Made by a program: the position numbers and the translations under genes. This document shows, one piece after another, positions 12,011-12,422 of a DNA stretch of 64,000 nt; the stretch's first letter is position 1; each line of letters begins with the position of its first letter. Source of the DNA: Escherichia coli (lineage in GTDB: Bacteria > Pseudomonadota > Gammaproteobacteria > Enterobacterales > Enterobacteriaceae); the NCBI RefSeq assembly GCF_030384885.1, contig NZ_CP128613.1; one strand, written 5' to 3'. The notes below the pieces were generated by a model, which saw only the letters and a program-made list of their open reading frames with translations, did not search any database and was not told where the DNA came from.

Positions 12011-12124
12011 AAGAAAACATCCCCTGAGAGTTTAATTTTCGTCAAGATGCGTGGCGGACAATCCCCTGCCAGCGAAACGTTATCTTCCTGCTCCAGGTTT
12101 GCGACAAATTGGTGCGTCGCAAAA

Positions 12125-12140
12125 AAGCAAACGTTTAGCT
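12125..12140. promoter_or_regulatory. PurR-box-like operator upstream of ghxP
   Basis: AAGCAAACGTTTAGCT fits the PurR consensus ANGCAAACGTTTNCNT at 15 of 16 positions; related CAAACG(T/A)T motifs at 12072-12084, 12169-12181 and 12267-12281. Confidence 0.5.
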
Positions 12141-12422
12141 CCGCGCATACAAAACGGGTGGTAAAAAAAGCAAACGATTATCCGGCGATCATAGCGGCTT
12201 TTTCAACCGAAGTTTGCTGCTTTTTTCTCTTTTATTGTCTTGACGATGAAAAACCAGGCAATTGATGCGCAAACGTTATCGTCGATGCGCAAGATTGCAG
12301 CGTTATCGAGCCGCATACCGTTCAGGATTGCGATAAAAAATCGTCTGAGATGACAAAAATATTGCGGCTAAAAAGTATACTTTTACACTGGCGAAGAAAC
12401 GCCGGTGACATACAATTAAAGC

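Follow-up and report, generated by a model that had tools for sequence, protein, structure and literature searches.

The closest described precedents for a gene governed by several PurR boxes come from the PurR regulon itself. The purR gene carries two control sites downstream of its own promoter, purB carries an intragenic operator, and PurR blocks elongation at both genes; speA has two listed PurR sites, and two are predicted at each of purP/yieG and serA. Paired operators are also known from other members of the LacI family: lac O1 and O3 lie 92 bp apart, and gal OE and OI lie 113 bp apart and involve GalR dimers plus HU. Purine transporters of Bacillota, such as pbuG and pbuX, are under the control of the purine riboswitch (Rfam RF00167).

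We analyzed the control region of ghxP (yjcD), encoding a guanine/hypoxanthine:H+ symporter (EcoCyc; Papakostas 2013), within a 64-kb stretch of Escherichia coli DNA, referred to here as the window. PurR control of ghxP is already published and is not a new result. A PurR ChIP-chip peak assigned to ryjA/yjcD was seen only with adenine (log2 ratio 2.08), and the motif reported under it is the one that we call box D (Cho 2011). Expression of ghxP is repressed in a PurR- and adenine-dependent manner, as well as by HAP (Kozmin & Schaaper), and the gene is a member of the PurR-1 iModulon, with box D appearing again in the accompanying supplement (Sastry 2019). The PurR dependence implied by the original prediction, which was made from the letters of this DNA and proposed four PurR-like motifs upstream of ghxP, is therefore documented in the literature. 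The ChIP-chip peak (K-12 4,275,855-4,276,485, in older coordinates) spans all of the boxes discussed here, at a resolution too coarse to separate them. Box B corresponds to a listed -130 yjcD site that RegPrecise also has, and motif A to a 'novel' predicted -76 site in PMC4576408. Between them, the published yjcD/ghxP sites (Cho 2011, RegPrecise, PMC4576408, Sastry 2019) thus list D, B, and A, while the literature searched held no report of box C, of the fixed spacing between D and C, or of an RNA explanation for motif A.

Compared with these systems, ghxP resembles purR in having more than one PurR box, and resembles both purR and purB in having a box past the start, where bound repressor would block elongation. 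Unlike purR and purB, it has one operator over the -10 hexamer and another far upstream at a constant distance, for three in all, and its downstream box is built into a conserved RNA helix. A set of three conserved boxes that includes one over the -10 hexamer refines the known PurR control. The original prediction had considered several boxes for a single transporter unusual; the precedents at purR, speA, purP/yieG, and serA speak against this. Two operators about 100 bp apart that flank a promoter, with a conserved spacing of 99 bp, are reminiscent of lac and gal, but PurR is not known to oligomerize or to loop DNA. Like pbuG and pbuX, ghxP encodes a purine-base importer downstream of a structured leader that contains a three-way junction. 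Unlike the purine riboswitch, the ghxP leader gave no Rfam match at E <= 1, and we found no terminator, no sequestration of the Shine-Dalgarno sequence, and no evidence of a ligand; purine sensing is already provided by PurR.

The part of the window from 11990 to 12600 is 100% identical to E. coli strain 2013C-4282, and among 5426 complete E. coli genomes 5420 carry the segment. The genes around it are yjcE, ghxP, sraL/ryjA, soxR, soxS, and pdeC. The motifs sit in the 412 bp that separate the ghxP start codon from sraL, a divergent neighbor that is context and lies outside the ghxP control region. All control elements are given in the ghxP sense orientation, on the minus strand (Table 1). At its other end, sraL/ryjA is convergent with soxR and overlaps the soxR 3' end, and a 13-bp stem that ends sraL (12532-12562) looks like a terminator common to both genes. 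A GST-family gene separates sraL from the ghxP control region in most other genera. A 72-aa open reading frame on the plus strand (12047-12265), antisense to the ghxP leader and promoter, is probably spurious.

Table 1. Features of the ghxP control region and its neighbors, in window coordinates. Scores are in bits; positions relative to the start refer to the predicted ghxP start site.
Feature	Position	Strand	Cho-derived matrix	RegPrecise matrix	Description
ghxP (yjcD) CDS	10661..12010	-			open reading frame, 449 aa; annotated ghxP in matching E. coli genomes
Shine-Dalgarno sequence of ghxP, AGGGGA	12020..12025	-			in A-rich tail 3' of the folded domain; appears unpaired
Structured leader RNA domain, putative ghxP 5' UTR	12040..12156	-			~117 nt; three-way junction of P1, P1b-P2, and P3
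Outer helix CGUU/GACG		-			added by single-sequence folds; extends domain to 12156-12040
Helix P1	12150-12141 with 12054-12045	-			from RNAalifold
Helix P1b	12140-12131 with 12080-12071	-			left half of B (AGYUAAACGU) with core of A (ACGUUURRCU)
Hairpin P2	12122-12116 with 12105-12099	-			from RNAalifold
Hairpin P3	12065-12062 with 12058-12055	-			short; GUGGA/UCCAC
Motif A, AAGATAACGTTTCGCT	12071..12086	-	7.0 (background)	8.5	its core (12071-12080) supplies the 3' strand of RNA helix P1b
PurR operator B, AGCTAAACGTTTGCTT	12125..12140	-	19.1	15.7	~+30 to +45; in the putative transcribed leader
PurR operator C, GGATAATCGTTTGCTT	12168..12183	-	10.3 (rank 8)	14.8	overlaps -10 hexamer and predicted start site
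Predicted sigma-70 promoter	12177..12206	-			-35 TTGAAA (12206-12201), 18-bp spacer, -10 GATAAT (12182-12177)
PurR operator D, ACGATAACGTTTGCGC	12267..12282	-	18.5	17.3	centered at ~-105
Conserved block just 5' of D	12286..12303	-			genus-level consensus TGTTGC-N4-TTGCGCA; E. coli CGCTGCAATCTTGCGCA
sraL (ryjA) sRNA gene	12423..12563	+			divergent neighbor; Rfam RF01408, 153 bits; K-12 annotation

All four of the motif strings originally proposed are present in the window. Three of them, GCGAAACGTTATC (12072-12084), AAGCAAACGTTTAGCT (12125-12140), and GCGCAAACGTTATCG (12267-12281), lie exactly where they had been placed, while GCAAACGATTATC is found at 12170-12182 rather than 12169-12181, an offset of one. 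The sequence CAAACG(T/A)T, said to be common to all four, is contained in three; the first motif reads GAAACGTT, with GAAACG in its place. A match of 15 of 16 positions to the PurR box had been given for 12125-12140, which is too high: the motif agrees with the perfect palindrome ACGCAAACGTTTGCGT at 12 of 16 positions, and with the degenerate consensus ACGNAAACGTTTGCNT at 14 of 16 (Cho 2011). On both strands of the 64 kb, CAAACGWT was observed 6 times versus 7.0 expected, with three of the six copies packed into 150 bp of the region upstream of ghxP. The clustering of motifs upstream of this gene is beyond chance.

Candidate PurR boxes were scored with two matrices. One is a position weight matrix that we derived from the ChIP motifs of Cho 2011, omitting the yjcD site and using the other 27; the second is an independent RegPrecise PurR matrix, which comprises 313 sites and comes from the PMC4576408 supplement. 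With the Cho-derived matrix, B and D were the two best matches in 64 kb, the next scoring 13.0. With the RegPrecise matrix, D, B, and C were the three best distinct sites of the window. Validated operators scored with the same RegPrecise matrix gave 15.9 (guaB), 14.7 (glnB), 13.9 (carA), and 11.9 bits (purA), the last being the lowest of those scored. By this measure box C is level with validated weak operators, and motif A falls below every validated operator scored. Outside the ghxP region, the best RegPrecise match was GCGATAACGATTTCGC at 63687-63702 (13.2 bits); it lies inside a 414-aa open reading frame (62747-63991, minus strand) and is probably due to chance. The matrix scan therefore left not one but three boxes, D, B, and C, scoring as operators, and the expectation of several PurR-type operators in this region was borne out for these three by their matrix scores and by their conservation across species. 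The motif at 12072-12084 failed as a fourth operator on score and on conservation alike.

A consensus scan of 11950-12600 returned TTGAAA-18-GATAAT as the only promoter-like site. Across species, GTTGAAAA and GGATAAT are at least 98% conserved and held at a fixed spacing within an otherwise diverged spacer, and the same TTGAAA-18-GATAAT promoter is retained in Erwinia and other distant loci. Its -10 hexamer, GATAAT, forms the left half of box C. Judged from the position of these hexamers, ghxP transcription would start near 12171-12169, corresponding to ~4,278,319 in K-12, and the positions of D, C, and B relative to +1 refer to this predicted start. No mapped ghxP start site was found in the literature searched. 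Candidates for a second promoter picked by eye around D, B, and A had poor hexamers and were not conserved. With a single promoter-like element found and conserved, control of ghxP by multiple promoters, another suggestion of the original prediction, is not supported.

To compare the boxes across species, we used 80 ghxP loci, one per species, representing about 25 genera of Enterobacteriaceae. Box B was kept in 80 of 80 species, box D in 79, and the box C sequence RGATAATCGTTTGCYT in 78. Box D is identical to the motif under the ryjA/yjcD peak (Cho 2011), and the same sequence is given as a site in the Sastry 2019 supplement. Together with its adjacent TTGCGCA, D forms one of the conserved islands of the region, the others being GTTGAAAA and GGATAATCGTTTGC, and the sequence in between has diverged. 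The distance from D to C was 99 bp in 78 of 79 species even though the spacer sequence diverged, while C and B were separated by 42 to 205 bp, and B and the ATG by 114 to 190 bp. Outside the E. coli genus, more than 800 bp come between sraL and D, yet the 99 bp between D and C are retained. Since D travels with ghxP and not with sraL, the ChIP peak labeled ryjA/yjcD can be assigned to ghxP.

More distant relatives have lost individual boxes. Erwinia retains the promoter, C, and B and lacks D; strain ESL0689 retains D and C, 99 bp apart, and lacks both B and the leader; two metagenomic loci retain the promoter and C. The RGATAATCGTTTGCYT sequence of box C is found in Erwinia, ESL0689, and the metagenomic loci alike. 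Because it is retained in distant relatives missing D or B, box C is the most universal of the three operators, although part of its conservation could stem from the -10 hexamer alone.

Two further sequence patterns surround the operators. On the plus strand a run of A (AAAAAAGCAAACG) precedes both B and C (12119-12137 and 12163-12180), so that the A run and box at B and C make up a direct repeat of about 13 nt at a distance of 44 bp. Read on the sense strand, a T run follows each of the two operators; the one after B is conserved and supplies the U-rich stretch on the 5' side of hairpin P2. Directly 5' of D, the TTGCGCA of the conserved block at 12286-12303 is at least 98% conserved across genera and repeats, 20 bp away, the TTGCGCA at the 3' end of D. 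This block has no PurR-box score with the RegPrecise matrix, and nothing convincing emerged when it was compared by eye with the consensus sequences for sigma-54, CytR, DeoR, CRP, and PurR.

Scores at motif A followed a different course from those of the three operators. In the comparison of the boxes across species, A reached 7 bits only in Escherichia, some Citrobacter, and some Cedecea, and 8 bits or more in 9 of 80 species. The best RegPrecise score in the A region had its median at -0.8 over the 80 species and peaked at 10.7. In most species motif A lacks the PurR-critical positions A6 and C14, and it mirrors the departures of box B itself from the PurR consensus. On these sequence grounds, motif A is not a PurR operator. 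It looks PurR-like because it is complementary, in the transcript, to the near-palindromic operator B. Two metagenomic contigs (L084 and L085), whose GhxP is 85% identical, carry boxes at about -65 and -130 from the ATG. There, the box at the A position (ACGGAAACGATTACGT) reaches 18.4 bits and that at the B position is weak, at 11.2 bits; both segments have changed and are still complementary as RNA, with UAAUCGUUU pairing with AAACGAUUA. In some lineages such as these, A may be a real operator, and the operator function may have shifted from one helix strand to the other.

An alignment of the stretch from B to the ATG contains hairpins with visible compensatory changes. Helices P1 and P2 were obtained with RNAalifold, and P1b and P3 were added by us afterwards. 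Pairing statistics were taken from a MAFFT alignment that had not been fitted to any structure. In this alignment, 91.8% of cells were paired under the full structure versus 33-48% in slid controls, 16 pairs changed on both sides, and the observed pairing values were reached by 0 of 500 shuffles. Changes on both sides affected 7 of the 9 P1 pairs and every P2 pair (7 of 7). Within P1b only one pair covaries strongly, that between position 3 of B and its partner in A, as covariation of this helix is limited mainly to one pair by the constraint on B as DNA. Across the leader helices, G-U pairs outnumber A-C pairs (76 vs 21), an excess that favors the ghxP sense strand for the structure. A covariance model, R1, matched 79 ghxP loci among the 82 sources searched, matched the window once (12042-12153), and had no match in the ghxQ region; 92.7% of cells were paired in the R1-derived alignment of 77 distinct sequences, in which the pair of B position 3 with its partner in A reads UA 29, CG 28, and UG 12. 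This covariation supports a structured leader RNA. From the conserved promoter upstream and the G-U excess, we infer that the domain lies within the ghxP transcript.

When sequences from E. coli, Salmonella, Klebsiella, Enterobacter, and Kosakonia were folded singly, the minimum-energy structures again contained this three-way junction. E. coli P1 has mismatches, and the folding energy of the E. coli leader is no better than that of shuffled sequence (z = -0.12). Natural insertions spared every helix and were confined to three linkers, described below. In a search of Rfam 15 with the E. coli, Salmonella, Klebsiella, Enterobacter, and Cedecea regions, the leader had no match at E <= 1 and only sraL was matched. 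Going by Rfam and the literature searched, the leader RNA is apparently undescribed.

The insertions themselves are genus-specific and of 45-160 bp. They separate box C from P1 (L056, L060, L038, L079, L040, and L077), enlarge the junction that follows P2 (L065 and L055), or separate P1 from the Shine-Dalgarno sequence (L030). Several carry hairpins of their own, e.g., CTCCCCC...GGGGGAG in Klebsiella, and these insertions may be small mobile or REP-like elements. Two loci bear unexpected taxonomic labels: 'Bacillota bacterium MAG' (L001), with a GhxP that is 100% identical, and 'Chryseobacterium sp. 18061' (L077), with a GhxP that is 93% identical. Both have a ghxP locus of the E. coli or Enterobacteriaceae type with the same operators, and their labels probably reflect contamination or mis-binning in public assemblies.

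We considered several functions for the leader. No terminator-like site was found in it that could act as an intrinsic terminator or attenuator, the U run preceding P2 rather than following it. The sequence CTCAGGGGAT hardly varies across the alignment and stays outside the helices of the consensus fold, and no expression platform that sequesters the Shine-Dalgarno sequence was found. Pairing of the P2 loop (CCCC) with the Shine-Dalgarno sequence (GGGG) fits most genera, but E. coli has CACC and has lost it; with an invariant Shine-Dalgarno side, covariation carries no information on this pairing. A leader peptide was rejected: Enterobacter and Kluyvera do not have the ATG inside P1 (GTATGCG), indels in the P2 loop break its frame, and E. 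coli does not have the ATG in GGAGATGACG. As an RNase III substrate the leader offers no continuous duplex of ~20 bp, since P3 interrupts the 3' strand of P1 and P1b. The paralogue ghxQ lies inside a xanQ-guaD-ghxQ operon, is without such a leader, and gave no R1 match. Our best guess for the leader is a role in mRNA stability, translation, or Rho access, not in ligand sensing.

We propose that ghxP has one sigma-70 promoter and three PurR operators, and that motif A is a strand of the leader helix P1b; we put the probability of this arrangement at roughly two in three. PurR bound to hypoxanthine or guanine would repress the single ghxP promoter through D, C, and B. On C, covering the -10 hexamer and start site, PurR would exclude RNA polymerase, and on B, some 30-45 bp past the start, it may block elongation or promoter escape by analogy to purB and purR. 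Box D, where binding is known from published ChIP-chip, would assist from ~-105. That D keeps a fixed distance to C may point to a constraint of geometry, for instance a bridge between the two or a disturbance of upstream promoter contacts. Once transcribed, the RNA copy of B would pair with the A segment as P1b inside the ~117-nt leader domain. The invariant 99-bp spacing of D and C is compatible with cooperativity and is no demonstration of it. PurR is a dimer without the C-terminal tetramerization helix of LacI, and we know of no higher PurR oligomer.

A simpler arrangement, in which only D, or D and B, function and C is conserved purely as the -10 and initially transcribed region, is unlikely in our judgment. 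D is the sole motif reported under the ChIP peak, the left half of C coincides with the GATAAT hexamer, and the Cho-derived score of C places it only eighth. Conservation of C does not stop at the hexamer, however: the CGTTTGC past it is invariant in ~80 species and is kept in Erwinia, ESL0689, and metagenomic loci that lost D or B. A RegPrecise score of 14.8 bits is also comparable to those of the validated glnB, carA, and purA operators, and 44% of PurR motifs fall between -35 and -10. At the other extreme, the original prediction saw four PurR operators that act cooperatively or serve several promoters. We regard this as very unlikely, even though an ACGTT/ACGAT core is common to all four motifs, A has been predicted as a PurR site (PMC4576408), the contigs L084 and L085 have a strong box at the A position, and the fixed D-C spacing is compatible with cooperation. 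Motif A scores 7.0-8.5 bits in E. coli and in none of the 80 species does it match the weakest validated operator scored, its median there being below zero; only one promoter is conserved; and C and B are not phase-locked, as their spacing varies from 42 to 205 bp. The dimeric state of PurR, to our knowledge without a higher oligomer, likewise argues against this model.

The same boxes might belong to another LacI-family regulator such as GalR, RbsR, or CytR. GalR does bind purR operators, and the left half of E. coli motif A, CAGCGAAACG, has what we take to be a resemblance to an rbs operator half-site. The boxes are without the GTG...CAC ends of the listed GalR sites compared, though, the RbsR-like half is specific to Escherichia, and both PurR ChIP and PurR-dependent expression are documented, making this the least probable of the explanations considered. 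The complementarity of B and A raises a separate question, as any two near-consensus PurR palindromes are complementary to each other. It could then be a by-product of two ancestral palindromic PurR boxes, with a leader fold that has no function, and both the strong box at the A position in the two metagenomic contigs and the unexceptional stability of the E. coli fold agree with this. Against it, P1 and P2 are not PurR-like and yet hold most of the covariation (7 of 9 and 7 of 7 pairs), A follows the non-consensus bases of B and not the PurR consensus, and insertions avoid all helices. We consider a by-product improbable and favor motif A as a strand of P1b in a leader RNA downstream of one promoter and three operators.

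Three things are added here to the published picture of ghxP. One is box C, placed over the -10 hexamer, more widely conserved than either of the other two operators, and unreported in the literature searched. The strict 99-bp spacing of D and C offers a clean test case for whether phased distant sites can be used by a dimeric LacI-family repressor. The ~117-nt leader RNA, supported by covariation and absent from Rfam, lies in one of the most heavily mined genomes. Motif A carries a warning for motif-based regulon reconstruction, given that it had been published as a predicted PurR site: an operator look-alike can arise by base-pairing with an operator in the transcript. More tentatively, and with the odds against it, the leader could be a new cis-regulatory RNA that functions in Enterobacterales, with one set of 16 bp acting as a PurR operator in DNA and as a strand of a regulatory helix in RNA, and with the D-C spacing perhaps reflecting a PurR-PurR bridge or loop. 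If true, such a bridge or loop would be one not previously described for PurR, and the leader would add a second, post-transcriptional layer to the control of a purine importer, through binding of a ligand, protein, or sRNA or through access of Rho or RNase.
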